A stretch of 64,000 nt of DNA from Candidatus Poribacteria bacterium (GTDB lineage Bacteria; Poribacteria; WGA-4E; WGA-3G). The stretch is from NCBI GenBank assembly GCA_965198235.1, contig OZ240248.1, positions 1,984,001 to 2,048,000 of the forward strand. The letters run 5' to 3'. The notes below the pieces were generated by a model. The model searched no databases and was not told where the DNA came from. It worked only from the letters and a program-made list of their open reading frames with translations. Within the stretch, counting starts at the first letter, position 1. Every line of letters starts with the position of its first letter. Of the stretch, positions 442 through 27,989 are shown piece after piece. Both the position numbers and the translations under genes were made by a program.

Positions 442-2763
442 TTCTTCAAGAATCTTTTGATATGTCTGCGATGCCACGTTATACGCCTCGCGGGCGGCAT
501 CTCGCTCCTCTTCTCGGATGCGATCAACCTTTTCGTTCCAGCAGACTTCGACAGCCTCCAAACACCATTGCGCGCTTCTGCGACTTGCTCGGATCGGCTT
601 TCCATCTACAATAACGAAGACCGGATTCGTATGAGACGACGGGAAAATCCGTAACGCAACCCAACTCGATCTCTCAATAGATGCCTCAAATTGAACAGGG
701 ACGACGTCACCGTTAGCCACAATTTCTTGCCGCGCAACTGCCTGACCATTGACGATGAGTTCAAGAGGCACTTTCCGTTCTTCTGCAATACGAGCACGTT
801 CAATATCCCAATACGGTTGCTGATCCAAAGGACGATTCTGTATCGCAGGGTTAGGTTCTTCATCAAGCCGTGCAGCGACGCGAGCGGTAAGGGTTACCGT
901 GCTGGGTGCTTCCAGATCCAACTGGCTAATTTGTCCGGTCGGTGACTTTTCTCCAACCGGCACGCCACCGACGGTGAAGTCCAGCAAGTGACTTTTACCG
1001 TCTCCGACATAGGAACGCCCGTCTCGCAATCCTGCGACCCATGCATCGAAGTCGAGGGAACCGGCAGGCATTTTTACATATATTCGACCTAATCCCACCC
1101 GTTCGCCGTAAATGCAAGGGAAATCCGTCTCGCCACTGATTCGGGTGCGGAAACCACAGTTCAAGGTATGATACCAGATACTCAGTTCCCAAATGGCAGG
1201 TGTATCTACCGTGGATATGAAATCAACAGCGTCGTGAACGACATCCACGATATACTCATTAGCACCGATGCCATCAAAAGGGGGCATGTTGTAATTGGGG
1301 AGTTCGTCTCCATCCACTTTCAAACCCCAGCCGCTGTGACTGAAGCCTGTCACGGCTCCCTGTTCTTTCGCCCACTGAAGGACAGGGAGGTCCCAACTCG
1401 GCCATTCCTCAATGCGTTCAACACCTTTATAGTCGTCTTCAGTCAAAGCAAGCAACGAGAGATGTCCTGCGTGTGAGGAAGGAAAGCCCGATACCTCTAC
1501 GTCATAACGCATCACGTAGTCATCGGTCGAGAGTTCGTGGATTTTGCCCTCGAAAAACTCCTTCTGATAATACCAGCAGGGTCCCCACGAGAGTACACAA
1601 CCGACGTTGAGGTCCTCCCCGAGAATGTGTCGCATCATATCTTCCGGCGTGACACCCTCGGTGGGGCTTTCGTAGTGCGCACAACCCGCCGCGTGGACGT
1701 GATGATCCCCGGAACGCCAGCCTTCTGCTGCGATATGGATCCATCTTTCCAGACGGAATGTCTCTTGATGCGTTTCGATATTCGGGACGGTAATGGTTTG
1801 GGTCTTTACTCGGTATTCCGGTCCCCGTGTGTGCTCGACAGTATATTTGCCGGGTGGTAGAAGAACCGATTCGCCGTTGTGTCGATAGATTTGGTTATGA
1901 AAGAAAAAATCGGGTGCCAATCGTCGCCCGCGTGATGGATACACACGGTTCAATTCGTCACGAATGATAAAAGCGGCGGTTGTCGGCTTTCCGTCGAAAT
2001 CTAATACTTCTAAAGTTACCTTTACCGCTGGCACACAGTGGAATAGGATAGGGACTTCACTGCGGAAGCCGATATCCTGTGTTCCCTGACCGACATTGAA
2101 ACCAAGCATCGCTTCCCGTTTCCCCGCATCGCGGCTATAGAGTTGGACAATACGATACTCCAATTCCAATCCCGAAAGGCTCGCCTTCAAGGGTGGGTTG
2201 GAATAGACCTCAATATCGAGAAACCGGTGCGGAATATCGCTTTTGGGCACCGTCATCTGCGGGTCAGGGCTTCCACTGGAACGTTTATAAAGCGGGGCAG
2301 CATTCTCACTCTCAGCAACTAAAGGTGCTGTCACGCCAGCCTCGTTGTGTACCTTTACTAAAAAGGTACGCCAACCCTGCTGCATCAGTTCCTTGTCTAC
2401 TGGACCTTCCTTAACCTTCACACGGCTCTCAGGGTTGATATTGACACCGGTCAAACAGTATGCGTCAAGAGTTTTTTGAATGTCAACAATCGCCTGTTTA
2501 TGGTCATCGGCAACCAAGGCTTCCTTGATTGCGGAAAGATCGTCTTCAGATAGGGGTGAACCGAGATAGTCCAACGCCTCAATGAGTCGTTGGGTCGCTG
2601 AGGCGAACGGTTGAAACTCCACTTCAGTGACGAGGCTCAATTCATCGGTGAACCCCACCGAAGTGAAAGTGAGAAGCAATATCCAACTGATAAGTGTCAA
2701 GTAGAACAGTCTACAGGTTCCTTTTTTTCCAAGAGTGTTGTATCCATTTGTCGTCCATCGCAT
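430..2763 (-). CDS. CehA/McbA family PHP-like metallohydrolase, probably exported
   Basis: GDHHVH metal motif, later HSGWG and GETDFP motifs, N-terminal hydrophobic signal, Ig-like flanking regions. Confidence 0.75.
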   Translation of the reverse strand: MRWTTNGYNTLGKKGTCRLFYLTLISWILLLTFTSVGFTDELSLVTEVEFQPFASATQRLIEALDYLGSPLSEDDLSAIKEALVADDHKQAIVDIQKTLDAYCLTGVNINPESRVKVKEGPVDKELMQQGWRTFLVKVHNEAGVTAPLVAESENAAPLYKRSSGSPDPQMTVPKSDIPHRFLDIEVYSNPPLKASLSGLELEYRIVQLYSRDAGKREAMLGFNVGQGTQDIGFRSEVPILFHCVPAVKVTLEVLDFDGKPTTAAFIIRDELNRVYPSRGRRLAPDFFFHNQIYRHNGESVLLPPGKYTVEHTRGPEYRVKTQTITVPNIETHQETFRLERWIHIAAEGWRSGDHHVHAAGCAHYESPTEGVTPEDMMRHILGEDLNVGCVLSWGPCWYYQKEFFEGKIHELSTDDYVMRYDVEVSGFPSSHAGHLSLLALTEDDYKGVERIEEWPSWDLPVLQWAKEQGAVTGFSHSGWGLKVDGDELPNYNMPPFDGIGANEYIVDVVHDAVDFISTVDTPAIWELSIWYHTLNCGFRTRISGETDFPCIYGERVGLGRIYVKMPAGSLDFDAWVAGLRDGRSYVGDGKSHLLDFTVGGVPVGEKSPTGQISQLDLEAPSTVTLTARVAARLDEEPNPAIQNRPLDQQPYWDIERARIAEERKVPLELIVNGQAVARQEIVANGDVVPVQFEASIERSSWVALRIFPSSHTNPVFVIVDGKPIRASRRSAQWCLEAVEVCWNEKVDRIREEERDAAREAYNVASQTYQKILEESDF

Positions 2764-2809
2764 GTGGCATTCCTCCTAATCATTGATTGGTTTTTATCAC
2801 TAATGCCGT

Positions 2810-2838
2810 AGTCTATCATAATGTAGAGTGAATGTCAA
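2810..2838 (-). promoter_or_regulatory. Sigma70-type promoter for the metallohydrolase
   Basis: Minus strand TTGACA-17 nt-TAGACT with extended TG. Confidence 0.55.
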
Positions 2839-2855
2839 GTTCACAGTTGTCTGAA

Positions 2856-3572
2856 TCAAGTCACATGATAGTCCACACCATATTGCACCAAACCTAATCG
2901 TTGGGCTACACGTTGAGAAGCCACATTGTCCCACGAAGTACTATAGAGAGGAATGCAGTTCAAGGCACGGACAGCAAGTGCCCAAGCAGCGACAACCGAC
3001 GTTGCATGCCCACGCCGACGATAACCCGTTAGCGTATCAACGCCTGCTTCATGGGCTCGTGATGAGAGGCGGACACTTCGGCAAATTGACACCGCCTGTG
3101 AATCTTCTATAATTGCTAAATAGGGCTGCGAACTATTTAGTTCTGACACCATTTCGGCGAAGTCTCCCTTTAAGAGTCCTGCATTCTCACATGATAGTCG
3201 GACAACATTTATTGGTGGTGTAATATGTTCAGGAAAGCGATAAGCGGGTCCGATCCAGACTCGTTCAATGGGTGCATAACTTTGAAGAATATCCTTGAAT
3301 TGCCTATGGCTCTTTGGAATTTTCTCGGAGTTCACAAGCGTCGGTTCAGCATCAGCGACTTCCTTCAGTTGCGCAATCACGTTGTCCGGAAGGTCATGCC
3401 GGAACCTACATATTGAACCTTTAGTGGTGTATCCAAAGAAAAAACGAGGTGCTGATTCTGCAGCACCGGTAGGTTCGTTGATACGTTGAAGGCATCCGTT
3501 TTCATCCAGCGTGAATAGCACTTCAACTTGTATTTTCATCAGCTCTTTGTTAGATGCATCATGTTCCCTCAT
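2856..3572 (-). CDS. GNAT family N-acetyltransferase
   Basis: C-terminal EAGVDT..YRRRGHA acetyl-CoA motif and YST.WDN.ASQRVAQRLG. Confidence 0.8.
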   Translation of the reverse strand: MREHDASNKELMKIQVEVLFTLDENGCLQRINEPTGAAESAPRFFFGYTTKGSICRFRHDLPDNVIAQLKEVADAEPTLVNSEKIPKSHRQFKDILQSYAPIERVWIGPAYRFPEHITPPINVVRLSCENAGLLKGDFAEMVSELNSSQPYLAIIEDSQAVSICRSVRLSSRAHEAGVDTLTGYRRRGHATSVVAAWALAVRALNCIPLYSTSWDNVASQRVAQRLGLVQYGVDYHVT

Positions 3573-24342: not shown

Positions 24343-25186
24343 TCACTGTCCGACATTCGGGTCTAATTCCTTAGCCTTTTGAAAATCCGCCTTCGCCGTT
24401 TCCTTTTGTCCTAATGCTTCTTTCGCAAGCCCACGCTCGTAGAAGTATTCTGCATCCTCTGGATCAAGTCGGATAGCGGCATCAAAGTCCTCTATCGCGC
24501 CTTCAGCGTTACCAAGGGCAGTTTTGGCAACACCCCGATTACCATAGGCGGCGGCATCTTCTGGGTTGAGTTGTATTGCATGCGTGCAATCTCGAACTGC
24601 TGCTATGTATAACGCCTCTGCACCCGCTATATTTCCCTGATCCGTCTTAGTTTTACCAAGGTGGAACTGTGCATAACCCCGATTGATATATGGATCCGGA
24701 ATCTCGGATGCTATGTAAAGTACCCTCCGAGACCGTATATTTTCCTTTCGGGTATCCGACAGCAGAAACTGCCTCACCACTCTGAACGGTATCGCTGTTA
24801 CCAAGTGGAAGCGGCGCACCCGCCCCCGTAACTTTTAGGATGGCAAGGTCATTTTTCATATCGAACGCAGTGGCACCCTCAACAGTCCAGCGTTTCTCGT
24901 GGTCAACCGATTGTACGAGAACGGGTTCGAGGTGTGCAACAACGTGAATGTTCGTTGCGACCTTGTTACGTGCCACGAAAAAACCGTTGCCTACTCCTCT
25001 AATTCTCGACATACTCACGACGCGAACGATAGAATTACGCACACCTTCAGGTTCTAAAGGTTCAGCAGGCACTAAGCTTTTTTCTTGAATCTCTTGGGGA
25101 GCCCGCGCGCAGGAGCACAAAATTATTAAAGCCAATAAGCCTAATAAAAATTTTCTGTCAGTTTTCATAAATGGATACCTTTTCAT
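24343..25186 (-). pseudogene. Trypsin-like serine protease-TPR lipoprotein with internal deletion/frameshift
   Basis: N-terminal part has lipobox-like LCSC, GNGFF, TNIHVV, DLAILKV and VGYP but no GxSG; near 24700 the frame switches to TPR repeats (YINRG, AYGNRG, YERG). Confidence 0.75.
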
Positions 25187-25287
25187 CTTTAGTTGTAAAC
25201 TGATTCGCTTTTCTTGAAAAAATGTGAATTTTCCGAAAAATCCAAGGTTAAACGCTTAGAGGGAATTCTATAGAAATCGTAAAAGGC

Positions 25288-25317
25288 TTGACATTTACCC
25301 ACAAAATGTGCTACAAC
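25288..25317 (+). promoter_or_regulatory. Sigma70-type promoter for the structured RNA
   Basis: TTGACA-18 nt-TACAAC with extended TG. Confidence 0.55.
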
Positions 25318-25354
25318 ACTTAACATATATAGATTCCAAATAGGATTATCAAAT

Positions 25355-25513
25355 GTTTTACCTGTCGCTTACCACAGGCTTTGGTCTCGGAATAGACCAA
25401 ACCCCTCTTAAATTACATGAGAATTGCCTTCGCGGATTCGTAGGCTTAGGTGTTATGCTAATCACTATTTCCATGTATCGCGCAGGGGTGGGCTTCTAAG
25501 TAGCAGGTAAAAC
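25355..25513 (+). ncRNA. Unidentified multibranched structured RNA (sRNA or riboswitch aptamer candidate)
   Basis: 17-bp closing stem GTTTTACCTGTCGCTTA/TAAGTAGCAGGTAAAAC with G-U pairs only on the + strand; several nested internal stems; no ORF. Confidence 0.65.
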
Positions 25514-25534
25514 GGGTTCTAAGTTACACAATAT

Positions 25535-25591
25535 AACGCCCATCACTGAACATCATGAAAGCGAGGTTTCGGTGAGGGTGTTTTCTTTTTT
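25535..25591 (+). terminator. Intrinsic terminator
   Basis: ACGCCC-TCACTGAA.../...TTCGGTGAGGGTGT hairpin followed by TTTCTTTTTT. Confidence 0.7.
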
Positions 25592-25838
25592 AAACAACAG
25601 CAAAGTATTACGTTTGCAGGCAAGAAAACCTTATTTTTAATTGAACGCCAAGCGTGCACTCAGACCCCATGGTAGGATGTGGTGTCTTGTCGAACCCGCG
25701 CTGCGCCGATGTTGCAGTGCTACATGCCTTGGCCAATCCTTTAAAAAATCCCGTTTGACTTAACCGAAAACCATCGTGAAACGTAGTGGAACGATGCGCG
25801 AAGGCCAATCCTTTAAAATCCTTAAAAGAGGAGAAAAG

Positions 25839-27989
25839 ATGCATTACAGGATCGTTCTTTTGTTGTTCGTAATGATTGTTGCAGCAAACTTAAATGTCGA
25901 AGCCAGCAAAGAAATTAGGCCAGTGTTCACCCAAGATACAATCGAAATTGACGGGCATCTCAACGAGGAAGATTGGGCGCGGGCACAAGTCATCGATGAC
26001 TTTACCCAACAATCACCCGATGAGGGGCAACCAAGTAGCGAACGCACAGAGGTTCGTATGTTGTATAGCACCGAGAAGCTTTACATCGGGTTTGAATGTT
26101 ACGACTCCGAACCTAAAAAGGTTGTTGCGAACGAAATGCGGCGCGACGGGCAGCTTTGGCAGAATGACAACGTTTACGTGATGCTTGACACTTATGGTGA
26201 TAAAAGACAGTGCGTCTTTTTTCGCATGAATGCGCTCGGGGCACAGTCAGACACCGCAGTCACAGACGGCGGCGAAAATCTTAACGGGAGTTGGGACTGT
26301 ATCTGGGAAGCTGCTGGACGGCGACACGATAAAGGGTGGACAGTTGAGATCGCGATCCCCTTCAATCAGCTGCGGTTCAAAAAAGACGATTCGATGGTGT
26401 GGGGTGTGAATTTTGGACGCAATATCGCGCGAAAGAATGAAACGACACAATGGATACAGGTCCCTCGAAGTGAAAGTTGGCCCGGCACCTATCACCCGAC
26501 GTATCAAGGCAAACTGATTGGGCTACAGGGTGTTGCATCACCATCATATTTTGATGTCAAGCCGTATCTGATCGGCGGTTTGGCGAGGCATCTCAGCGAT
26601 GGAGATTGGCAGCGAACCACCGAACAGGACCTCGGGCTCGATATGAAATACGGTGTGACATCGAACCTGACATTGGATATGACGTTAAATACGGATTTTG
26701 CACAGGTAGAGGCAGACCAGGAGGAGGTTAACCTCACACGATTCAGCCTCTTTTTCCCGGAGCGGCGCGAATTTTTCCTCGAGGGCAGCGGGCTGTTCGC
26801 CTTTGGCGCAGGTATTGGAGACTTCGGTCCACCGCCGCTGGCCGTTTTTTACAGTCGCCGCATCGGCATTGAAGACGGTAAACAGGTTCGACTTCTTGGA
26901 GGCGGTAAGCTGACAGGAAAGGTCGGAGCTTACAGTGTGGGTGCGCTCAACATGACAACCGCTGCCTCACCAGAATCGCCCATGACAAACTTTTCTGTGC
27001 TAAGAATGCAGCGCGATATTCTCAGTGATTCAAGCGTCGGTTTTATTCTCACCAATCGGCAGAGCGACCTCGGCGAGTATCATCGCAACGGCGGAATAGA
27101 CCTGTTTTTTAGACCCCATGATCAGTGGCGGATGCGCGCAATGACCGTGGGGAGTTGGTCTCCAGACCCGGACGAGCGCGATTTCGCATGGTATCTCTCA
27201 AACGACTGGCGCAACGATTATTTTCATATCAATGCGTCTTATCTTGACATCGGTCCCCAATTTACGAGTAAAATGGGGTTCATGCATCGACGAGACATCC
27301 GCTCGTTGATGTTGAATGCCGATTACGAAGTCCAAGTTAGGCGGTATGGTGTCCGAGATGTTGGAGCGATTTTCAATGGCAGTTACCTATTAGACCACGA
27401 TAACAGACTTATCGGTTGGGACGTGGGAGTTGGTGGAGATATGCTCTCGGAGTCCGACGATGGATTCAATCTCGATTTCCGTCGGTTTTTCGACCGTGTT
27501 GAGGAATCTTTCAGCATCGGTGGTGTTGAGATTCCCGTTGGCGATTACGAGATGAATCAAGTTTCCCTAATGGCTTTCACTGAGACCAGTCGTCCGTTCG
27601 CTGTATTCGGTGGTGTGGATTATGGGGATTACTTTCACGGCAACCACGTGAGTTTTAACATTGATAGTCAGTGGCGGATGACCTACCAACTCGCGATCGA
27701 AACACGATACCAGCGCAATTGGATTCACTTGCCCGAAAGCGATCTGTTCACGACAAACATTGTCGGCACACGTATCAGTTATGCGTTGAATACCCGTTTC
27801 TTTACCAAATTGTACGCACAATGGAACGATAGTGCAGAACGGGCAAGCGCGAATTTCTTGCTCAATTACATCTATCGTCCGGGAAGCGATTTTTATTTCG
27901 TGTTCGATCAGGCATGGAATGCAGCGGACGGTTTGCGGGAGCACGAATGGACAGTATTGAGCAAGTTTACCTATCTGTTCAGTTTATAG
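25839..27989 (+). CDS. Carbohydrate-binding family 9-like/DUF5916 outer-membrane protein
   Basis: Signal peptide, IDG.LNE.DW, WTVEIAIPF..LRF, NTDFAQVEAD...NLTRFSLFFPERREFFLEG, C-terminal aromatic beta-strand. Confidence 0.8.
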   Translation: MHYRIVLLLFVMIVAANLNVEASKEIRPVFTQDTIEIDGHLNEEDWARAQVIDDFTQQSPDEGQPSSERTEVRMLYSTEKLYIGFECYDSEPKKVVANEMRRDGQLWQNDNVYVMLDTYGDKRQCVFFRMNALGAQSDTAVTDGGENLNGSWDCIWEAAGRRHDKGWTVEIAIPFNQLRFKKDDSMVWGVNFGRNIARKNETTQWIQVPRSESWPGTYHPTYQGKLIGLQGVASPSYFDVKPYLIGGLARHLSDGDWQRTTEQDLGLDMKYGVTSNLTLDMTLNTDFAQVEADQEEVNLTRFSLFFPERREFFLEGSGLFAFGAGIGDFGPPPLAVFYSRRIGIEDGKQVRLLGGGKLTGKVGAYSVGALNMTTAASPESPMTNFSVLRMQRDILSDSSVGFILTNRQSDLGEYHRNGGIDLFFRPHDQWRMRAMTVGSWSPDPDERDFAWYLSNDWRNDYFHINASYLDIGPQFTSKMGFMHRRDIRSLMLNADYEVQVRRYGVRDVGAIFNGSYLLDHDNRLIGWDVGVGGDMLSESDDGFNLDFRRFFDRVEESFSIGGVEIPVGDYEMNQVSLMAFTETSRPFAVFGGVDYGDYFHGNHVSFNIDSQWRMTYQLAIETRYQRNWIHLPESDLFTTNIVGTRISYALNTRFFTKLYAQWNDSAERASANFLLNYIYRPGSDFYFVFDQAWNAADGLREHEWTVLSKFTYLFSL

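Follow-up and report, generated by a model that had tools for sequence, protein, structure and literature searches.

Our analysis indicates that the structured element at positions 25288-25591 of the window (the whole 64,000-nt stretch of Candidatus Poribacteria DNA under study, to which coordinates refer unless another contig or locus is named) is probably a ribosome-mediated, or leader-peptide, transcription attenuator placed before a DUF5916/CBM9 gene, a reading to which we give a probability of roughly 0.78. We favour it because a Shine-Dalgarno (SD) box, a start codon and an open reading frame are conserved within the element, because the element is homologous to the leader of the isoleucine--tRNA ligase gene (ileS) of the same genome, and because a predicted antiterminator reaches into the last codons of the frame. 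Apart from metatranscriptome contigs that lie on the leader, all of the evidence is computational: it was by computation that we established the frame with its conservation, the homology, the competition between helices, the purifying selection and the linkage to the gene, whereas the role of leader translation in deciding whether transcription terminates, and the nature of the stall signal, are what we infer. The element had earlier been read, from its letters alone, as a possible new structured RNA; we assign it instead to a known kind of regulator, and a candidate 'new structured RNA class' is thereby replaced by a concrete mechanism that can be tested.

A short reading frame within the leader

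The leader carries a reading frame, overlooked in the sequence-only reading, of 48 codons plus TAA (MFYLSLTTGFGLGIDQTPLKLHENCLRGFVGLGVMLITISMYRAGVGF; 25353-25499, + strand), which is present in the list of open reading frames and homologous to the frame of the ileS leader. An SD box, AGGA (25342-25345, + strand), lies 7 nt before the ATG, and AGGA or a near variant of it is found in the listed homologues. SD box, ATG and open frame were present in 49 of 49 full-length homologues (48 genomes of the genus and the window), with frames of 34-48 codons; left out of this set were two loci split by large insertions (L017 and L032), one with an internal deletion (L027) and two partial ones (L042 and L060). 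In the alignment, insertions and deletions within the body of the frame keep the register (33, 12, 9 and 3 nt). Six 1-nt deletions (L013, L016, L033, L035, L041 and L049) all fall in the last 10 codons and shift the stop by a few codons at most. The stop codon itself comes one codon after region 2, the stretch of last codons described below, and stays within a few codons of it even in the frameshifted variants.

Single changes that would create a stop were also scarce in this frame: none of the eight possible ones was seen where about three were expected (P ~0.02), as against 13 of 20 and 5 of 15 in the other two frames. On the other hand, the encoded sequence is under little constraint, with a pN/pS of 0.58 in the frame versus 0.66 and 0.78 off-frame (32 sequences with 37 codons) and codon-position entropies of 0.54, 0.49 and 0.61 (32 sequences). 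Such low amino-acid constraint fits a leader frame whose translation would outweigh its product, and is weak proof of translation. Searches of Pfam and NCBIfam, leader-peptide models included, gave no match for either leader peptide (DUF5916 or ileS).

We considered whether the element could instead be an mRNA that encodes a small hydrophobic protein, such as a type I toxin-like peptide, with translation blocked by a helix between the 5' and 3' ends of the message. A frame of 37-48 aa with a hydrophobic centre (…FIGLGVVLIGISM…), a long-range helix that sequesters SD box and AUG, and a short transcript with its own terminator would suit such an mRNA, but the peptide is little constrained and admits Arg and Pro substitutions within the hydrophobic stretch, C-terminal frameshifts are tolerated, and no Pfam or NCBIfam family claims it. 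Moreover, a scan for consensus signals lists no antisense promoter or terminator in 25320-25600, the - strand folds at chance level (z -1.46), and homology to the ileS leader already accounts for the frame. We consider a toxin-like mRNA very unlikely.

Promoter, terminator and fold

The promoter, as read from the sequence (25288-25317, + strand), consists of a -35 box TTGACA (25288-25293), an 18-nt spacer that contains a TG (25309-25310), and a -10 box TACAAC (25312-25317), with a predicted transcription start at ~25323-25325. It is the TTGACA/TG-TACAAC promoter already pointed out in the sequence-only reading, and its boxes are conserved in relatives (-35 TTGACA, -10 TATAAT). The strong terminator noted at the same time is present as well: folds and pair counts give an intrinsic terminator on the + strand with a stem at 25535-25582 (5' arm 25535-25551, 3' arm 25566-25582) and a T run at 25581-25591. 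A scan for consensus promoters and terminators listed neither of the two, since its rules admit neither a -10 box with a final C nor a hairpin loop of more than 8 nt.

On the + strand, 25320-25600 folds to a minimum free energy (MFE) of -79.2 kcal/mol compared with -62.2 (sd 4.5) for dinucleotide shuffles (z -3.79, with 0 of 200 shuffles as good), whereas on the - strand z is -1.46 and 16 of 200 shuffles fold equally well. The 17-bp stem joining 25355-71 to 25497-513, and the stems nested inside it, are likewise real in the sense that they appear in the MFE fold of the + strand. The hairpin TTTGGTCT/AGACCAAA and the CCCCT arm, which had been counted among these inner stems, do exist in this genome but are not part of the conserved element: they sit in a 33-nt in-frame insert (25377-25409, + strand), a piece of a dispersed repeat that is found in 9 of 47 aligned homologues.

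No Rfam family matched anywhere in the window at gathering score. In E-value mode, matches to 25100-25900 were at chance level only (the best, on the - strand, scored 19.5 bits where 88 are needed), and so were matches to the ileS leader. The sequence-only reading had recognised no consensus of SRP, RNase P, tmRNA or the cobalamin, lysine or glycine riboswitches; its suggestion of a stand-alone sRNA or divergent 6S finds no support in these scans. It had also named a multicopy MITE as an outcome that would overturn the proposal; this is ruled out because the genome holds one full copy of the element, and the only repeat-derived parts are the 33-nt insert and a second insert at 25632-25808.

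Homology to the leader of ileS

Searched with an nhmmer profile of the 3' module, this genome yields two matches and no more, namely the element itself (E 2.5e-33) and the ileS leader (E 1e-13; C1:1239066-1239161). With filters off, these remain the only two matches below E = 1, and blastn of the genus with the ileS leader yields at most two matches per genome. The ileS leader lies outside the window (contig C1, ~1238816-1239171; locus L003:1205-1560) and has its own TTGACA promoter followed by a 45-codon frame, MLTTPTSQDKESVRCNTPNHDCLGAVTGSRAISIIIIAIRRAVVG (MLTT...AISIIIIAIRRAVVG), rich in Ile codons, and then by the synthetase gene, identified as isoleucine--tRNA ligase by a TIGR00392 score of 938 bits (cut-off 621). 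This leader is present in 61 of 65 genomes of the genus, including 49 of 49 high-quality ones, and an Ile-rich frame was found in all 30 of the ileS-leader loci examined. In two sister genera, at least 14 of 19 ileS loci have a frame reading MFYQSLTT...IIIAIRRAVVG, the N-terminus of which is shared with the DUF5916 leader (MFYLSLTT), and in a third family of the order an Ile-rich frame of another sequence was seen ahead of ileS at 3 of 8 loci (MLTITVIISSVLISIIILIDGGQKA).

Direct comparison of the two leaders of this genome shows two stretches of nucleotide homology, one extending from the promoter through the SD/start region and the other beginning at the Ile-run region and continuing as far as the T run. 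They have in common the SD/start region (MFY.SLTT in its ancestral form), the same region 2 (GTGGTGGGC), the spacer with its motif AGATAA, region 3, the terminator and the predicted antiterminator. They differ in that the ileS leader has 4-7 Ile codons (ISIIIIAI) just before region 2 and precedes isoleucine--tRNA ligase, whereas in the DUF5916 copy one or two of those codons are left, ~36 nt are missing from the middle, and the gene that follows is of the envelope type. For example, ATT ATT ATT GCT ATT CGT CGT GCT of the ileS leader aligns with ATT GGT ATT TCC ATG TGT CGC GCA of the copy. Among homologues of the copy, Ile stands at aligned codon 39 in 39 of 47 and at codon 37 in 26 of 47, with one homologue having no Ile there, and the surviving Ile codons are embedded in a Val/Leu/Ile-rich stretch. 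The stall signal of the ileS leader is predicted to be its Ile codons.

Competing helices

Region 2 (GCAGGGGTGGGCT; 25482-25494, + strand), the highly conserved last codons of the frame, can pair either with a strand at the 5' end of the leader, in what we call the protector, or with the 5' arm of the terminator, in a predicted antiterminator. Its partner in the terminator arm is region 3 (CGCCCATCACTGA; 25537-25549, + strand). In both leaders the last codons GUGGUGGGC are complementary to the terminator 5' arm GCCCAUCAC, which would offer the nascent RNA a choice between antiterminator and terminator. When the 3' arm of the terminator was omitted, the helix of regions 2 and 3 formed in the MFE structure of 46 of 47 homologues with at least 7 of 11 core pairs (38 of 47 with at least 9), and the same helix was found in 40 of 43 ileS leaders. 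The median energy of the antiterminator fold is -20.5 kcal/mol compared with -18.9 for the terminator, and the antiterminator columns are 81% paired as against 31-46% with a slid partner. At the same time, no pair of this helix changed on both sides, and column shuffles equalled its pairing in 219 of 500 trials, because its columns hardly vary; it is complementarity and conservation, then, that point to the antiterminator.

The 5' strand of the protector helices (25349-25376, + strand) takes in the post-SD spacer, the AUG and codons 1-8, and the 3' strand (25485-25522, + strand) comprises the end of the frame, the stop codon and part of the spacer behind it, both as given by folds and pair counts (helices 1-4). 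RNAalifold, applied to the 47-sequence alignment, recovered the terminator and small local helices only (-17.5 kcal/mol) and did not recover the long stem, and for this reason we turned to votes from single-sequence folds with explicit pair counts. The resulting long-range structure of 66 pairs, derived by vote from folds of the same sequences in which the pairs were then counted, is paired in 88.1% of cells. Twenty-two of its pairs changed on both sides (shuffle mean 17.0; 8 of 500 shuffles reach 22), as did 80 cells (shuffle mean 42; 0 of 500), and its covariation score is 0.195 compared with 0.173 in shuffles (0 of 500) and 0.05-0.14 with slid partners. The terminator helix (helix 7) is paired in 95.9% of cells, with one pair changed on both sides, and is predicted in 41-44 of 47 single-sequence folds; the long-range helices appear in just 17-29 of 47. 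Since the long-range structure was derived from the very sequences on which it was scored, and since RNAalifold missed it, we rate as moderate the support for a helix that would join the start region to the end of the frame.

Proposed mechanism and stall signal

In the attenuator that we propose, the strong promoter would start a leader of ~270 nt carrying the short translated frame. With no ribosome on the leader, the start region (post-SD spacer, AUG and codons 1-8) would pair with the end of the frame and the spacer, the terminator would form and transcription would stop. A ribosome that has reached the stop codon (25497-25499) would cover region 2 and likewise allow the terminator to form. 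A ribosome stalled at least ~6 codons before region 2, on the other hand, would leave region 2 free, so that its GUGGUGGGC could pair with GCCCAUCAC of the nascent terminator 5' arm and RNA polymerase would read on into the gene.

What would stall the ribosome on the DUF5916 leader can be put forward only tentatively. A shortage of charged tRNA-Ile, or of branched-chain aminoacyl-tRNAs, is a possible signal, at somewhat less than even odds, suggested by the one or two Ile codons that survive where the ileS leader has its Ile run, and by the Val/Leu/Ile-rich stretch around them. If the copy does still respond to Ile or to translation stress, amino-acid supply would be linked to an envelope protein in an unculturable symbiont. 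Alternatively, and in our view rather unlikely, the attenuator, its Ile run eroded, may have been retuned after duplication to read not isoleucine but a slowing of the ribosome (translation stress, or ribosome-targeting compounds of the sponge holobiont) or a nascent-peptide stall, in which case expression of an outer-membrane CBM9/DUF5916 protein would follow how translation is faring. Control through rare codons or Cys codons was rejected: we found no rare-codon cluster in the DUF5916 leader frame, and Cys codons are not conserved in the clade of the window.

Selection on the leader

Median pairwise identity of the leader is 0.75, compared with 0.50 at four-fold sites of the adjacent gene (28 genomes, 378 pairs). 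By part, identity is 0.855 in the terminator, which is the best conserved part of the leader, 0.79 in the 5' part, 0.74 in region 2 plus spacer, and 0.67 in the middle of the frame. As the leader stands above the silent sites of its neighbouring gene, the copy is maintained under purifying selection and is not decaying.

This matters for the idea that the element is a relic, a duplicated ileS leader that has lost its regulation and is kept as a promoter with a leaky terminator. An eroded Ile run, loss or breakage of the leader in several genomes, and repeats inserted within and behind it would all be natural in a relic. However, every part of the leader lies above silent-site identity (0.67-0.855 versus 0.50), none of the 49 full-length homologues has lost the open frame, the 33-nt insertion notwithstanding, and the stop codon stays beside region 2. 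We consider a relic very unlikely.

The same figures help to distinguish an attenuator from a metabolite-binding riboswitch with the terminator as its expression platform. The sequence-only reading had offered a riboswitch or attenuator for the downstream DUF5916 gene as one outcome, and of this the attenuator fits in kind, but the evidence favours a leader peptide over a ligand-binding domain. As in a riboswitch, a domain of several helices in the structured leader goes together with a terminator and a predicted antiterminator; what would have to serve as its aptamer, though, is an open frame with an SD box that tolerates in-frame indels of 9-33 nt, the middle of that frame is the least conserved part (0.67), Rfam gives no match, and the homologue carries a run of Ile codons. 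A riboswitch is, for us, an extremely remote prospect.

Downstream gene and origin of the copy

The presumed regulated gene (25839-27989, + strand) encodes 716 aa with CBM9-like and DUF5916 domains (PF06452, 3.2e-08; PF19313, 5.7e-23). Judged by eye, the N-terminus of the protein resembles a signal peptide; its sole NCBIfam match is far under cut-off, and a sequence search found no relative with a solved structure. There is no known isoleucine link for this DUF5916/CBM9 gene. In relatives the T run of the leader is followed after ~50-55 nt by the SD box and ATG of the gene, and in one genome a second copy of the leader likewise precedes a DUF5916 gene.

The element was found by DNA search (E <= 1e-8) in 53 of 65 genomes of the genus, and in 40 of the 49 high-quality ones, its hosts being Candidatus Poribacteria metagenome-assembled genomes. 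Other genera of the order gave no convincing DNA match, and the DNA search of five sister-genus genomes found no DUF5916 leader; two close sister-genus DUF5916 orthologues (78-79% identity) have upstream regions lacking such a module. Since these sister-genus DUF5916/CBM9 orthologues have no leader, the DUF5916 leader is, as judged from homology and distribution, a genus-specific duplicate of the Ile-codon-rich ileS leader.

Two complete genomes of the genus carry the orthologue with a clean absence of the leader in front of it, a third retains a decayed remnant of the leader lacking the terminator 3' arm, two others have no orthologue at all, and in two further genomes IS605-type insertions split the leader. 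The leader is therefore dispensable, being missing, decayed or split in several genomes of the genus.

Metatranscriptome contigs

In one study, two runs have contigs on the leader, one of 208 nt (25355-25562, with 0 mismatches) and one of 240 nt (25312-25551). In a second study, contigs from a strain ~89% identical join the leader to the gene, skipping the genome-specific insert between them. Contigs start at 25312 in run X2 and at 25319 in run X3, a weak hint for the promoter, and a contig of run X4 runs on upstream of the promoter. All four runs consist of assembled contigs, from which transcript ends, strand and level cannot be read, and the stretches lacking contig cover, namely the gene body (X1 and X2) and 25194-25287 (all four runs), carry no weight. 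The contigs tell us that RNA libraries contain the leader sequence and that it can be continuous with the gene, and they say nothing beyond that.

These contigs bear on whether the element could be a stand-alone small RNA, possibly of dual function, that acts in trans and only happens to lie before the DUF5916 gene. It has a strong promoter and a strong terminator of its own, short RNA-library contigs lie wholly inside it, and at full length it folds so that its SD box and AUG are buried, and could persist as a stable RNA. Yet the contigs of the relative bridge leader and gene, relatives leave no space for a second promoter before the gene, the extra copy of the leader, too, stands next to a DUF5916 gene, the homologue sits directly before ileS with its Ile run, and no Rfam family was matched. 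Taking these points together, we think a trans-acting RNA very unlikely, and the leader-peptide attenuator remains our preferred reading.

Relation to known attenuators

Leader-peptide attenuators are classically those of enterobacteria, such as trpL, thrL, ilvL/ivbL, leuL, hisL and pheM-pheST. The present leader resembles them in having a short frame predicted to be translated, an intrinsic terminator and a predicted antiterminator that shares an arm with it, and a stop codon so placed that a finishing ribosome would block the antiterminator. It differs from them in that the DUF5916 copy has no tandem run of codons for one amino acid, the long-range 'protector' helix would also hide the leader's own SD box and AUG, the target gene concerns neither amino-acid supply nor tRNA charging, and no Rfam leader family or NCBIfam leader-peptide model matches. 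With regard to the target, a nearer parallel may be PA5471.1 before armZ in Pseudomonas aeruginosa, reportedly a leader-peptide attenuator that senses ribosome stalling, where a leader frame and terminator control an envelope/efflux gene and not amino-acid supply; the likeness is one of description, and such a stalling signal would be speculative for the DUF5916 leader.

As for ileS, the relevant passage of one paper describes T-boxes before actinobacterial ileS and mentions classical attenuation of pheST (PMC1262725), and a figure legend in another names CCNA_03934 as the leader CDS of ileS in Caulobacter crescentus (PMC4117421). CCNA_03934, as named in that legend, resembles the Poribacteria leaders by name and position alone, being a small coding sequence located before ileS in a Gram-negative species. 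Our literature search found no paper on attenuators in Poribacteria.

The present case adds a leader with Ile codons, ahead of ileS, whose conservation extends over a family of these uncultured sponge symbionts. It also suggests that an entire regulatory unit of ~300 nt, with its promoter, leader frame and switch, can be duplicated to a site before an unrelated gene, where selection continues to act on the copy even as its sensing codons are eroded and it takes in repeats and IS605-type elements. If the retuning considered above did take place, this would be a natural instance of an aminoacyl-tRNA-synthetase attenuator acquiring both another target and another signal, with species differing in whether they have it.

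Inserted repeats and flanking sequences

The repeat from which the 33-nt insert derives has related copies at three other places in the genome, and most relatives hold several; in these other copies the hairpin TTTGGTCT..AGACCAAA is followed by TCCTTGTATTACATTGCAAAAAC. Between terminator and gene, alignment with relatives shows ~175 extra nt specific to this genome (25632-25808), made up of two repeat elements. One, at 25634-25735 (~100 nt), has two other copies, in tandem, at C1:414594-414815. The other, at ~25750-25820 (~45-70 nt), has more than 40 genomic copies, and its summed depth in the four metatranscriptome runs is very high (~900-3200), over many contigs with different flanks. A separate promoter could lie within these ~175 nt of repeats in this genome.

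Larger insertions were seen in relatives. At L017:133-1284 (genome G001), an insertion of ~1.45 kb with a TnpB-like gene (OrfB_IS605 plus a Cas12f1-like TNB domain) lies directly after TTGAT, and in L032 (genome G079) an insertion of less than 1 kb splits the leader frame, an ORF scan there giving one similar N-terminus.

Two flanking blocks are also conserved. A block between the terminator and the SD box of the gene (25605-25631, ATTACGTTTGCAGGCAAG) is conserved across the genus, and so is 25205-25260, upstream of the leader promoter (TTCTTGAAAAAATGTGAATTTT...GAAGGTTAAA), even in genomes that have no leader. The latter may be an older promoter region, either of the DUF5916 gene or of the divergent gene for a trypsin-like protease (24653-25186, - strand).
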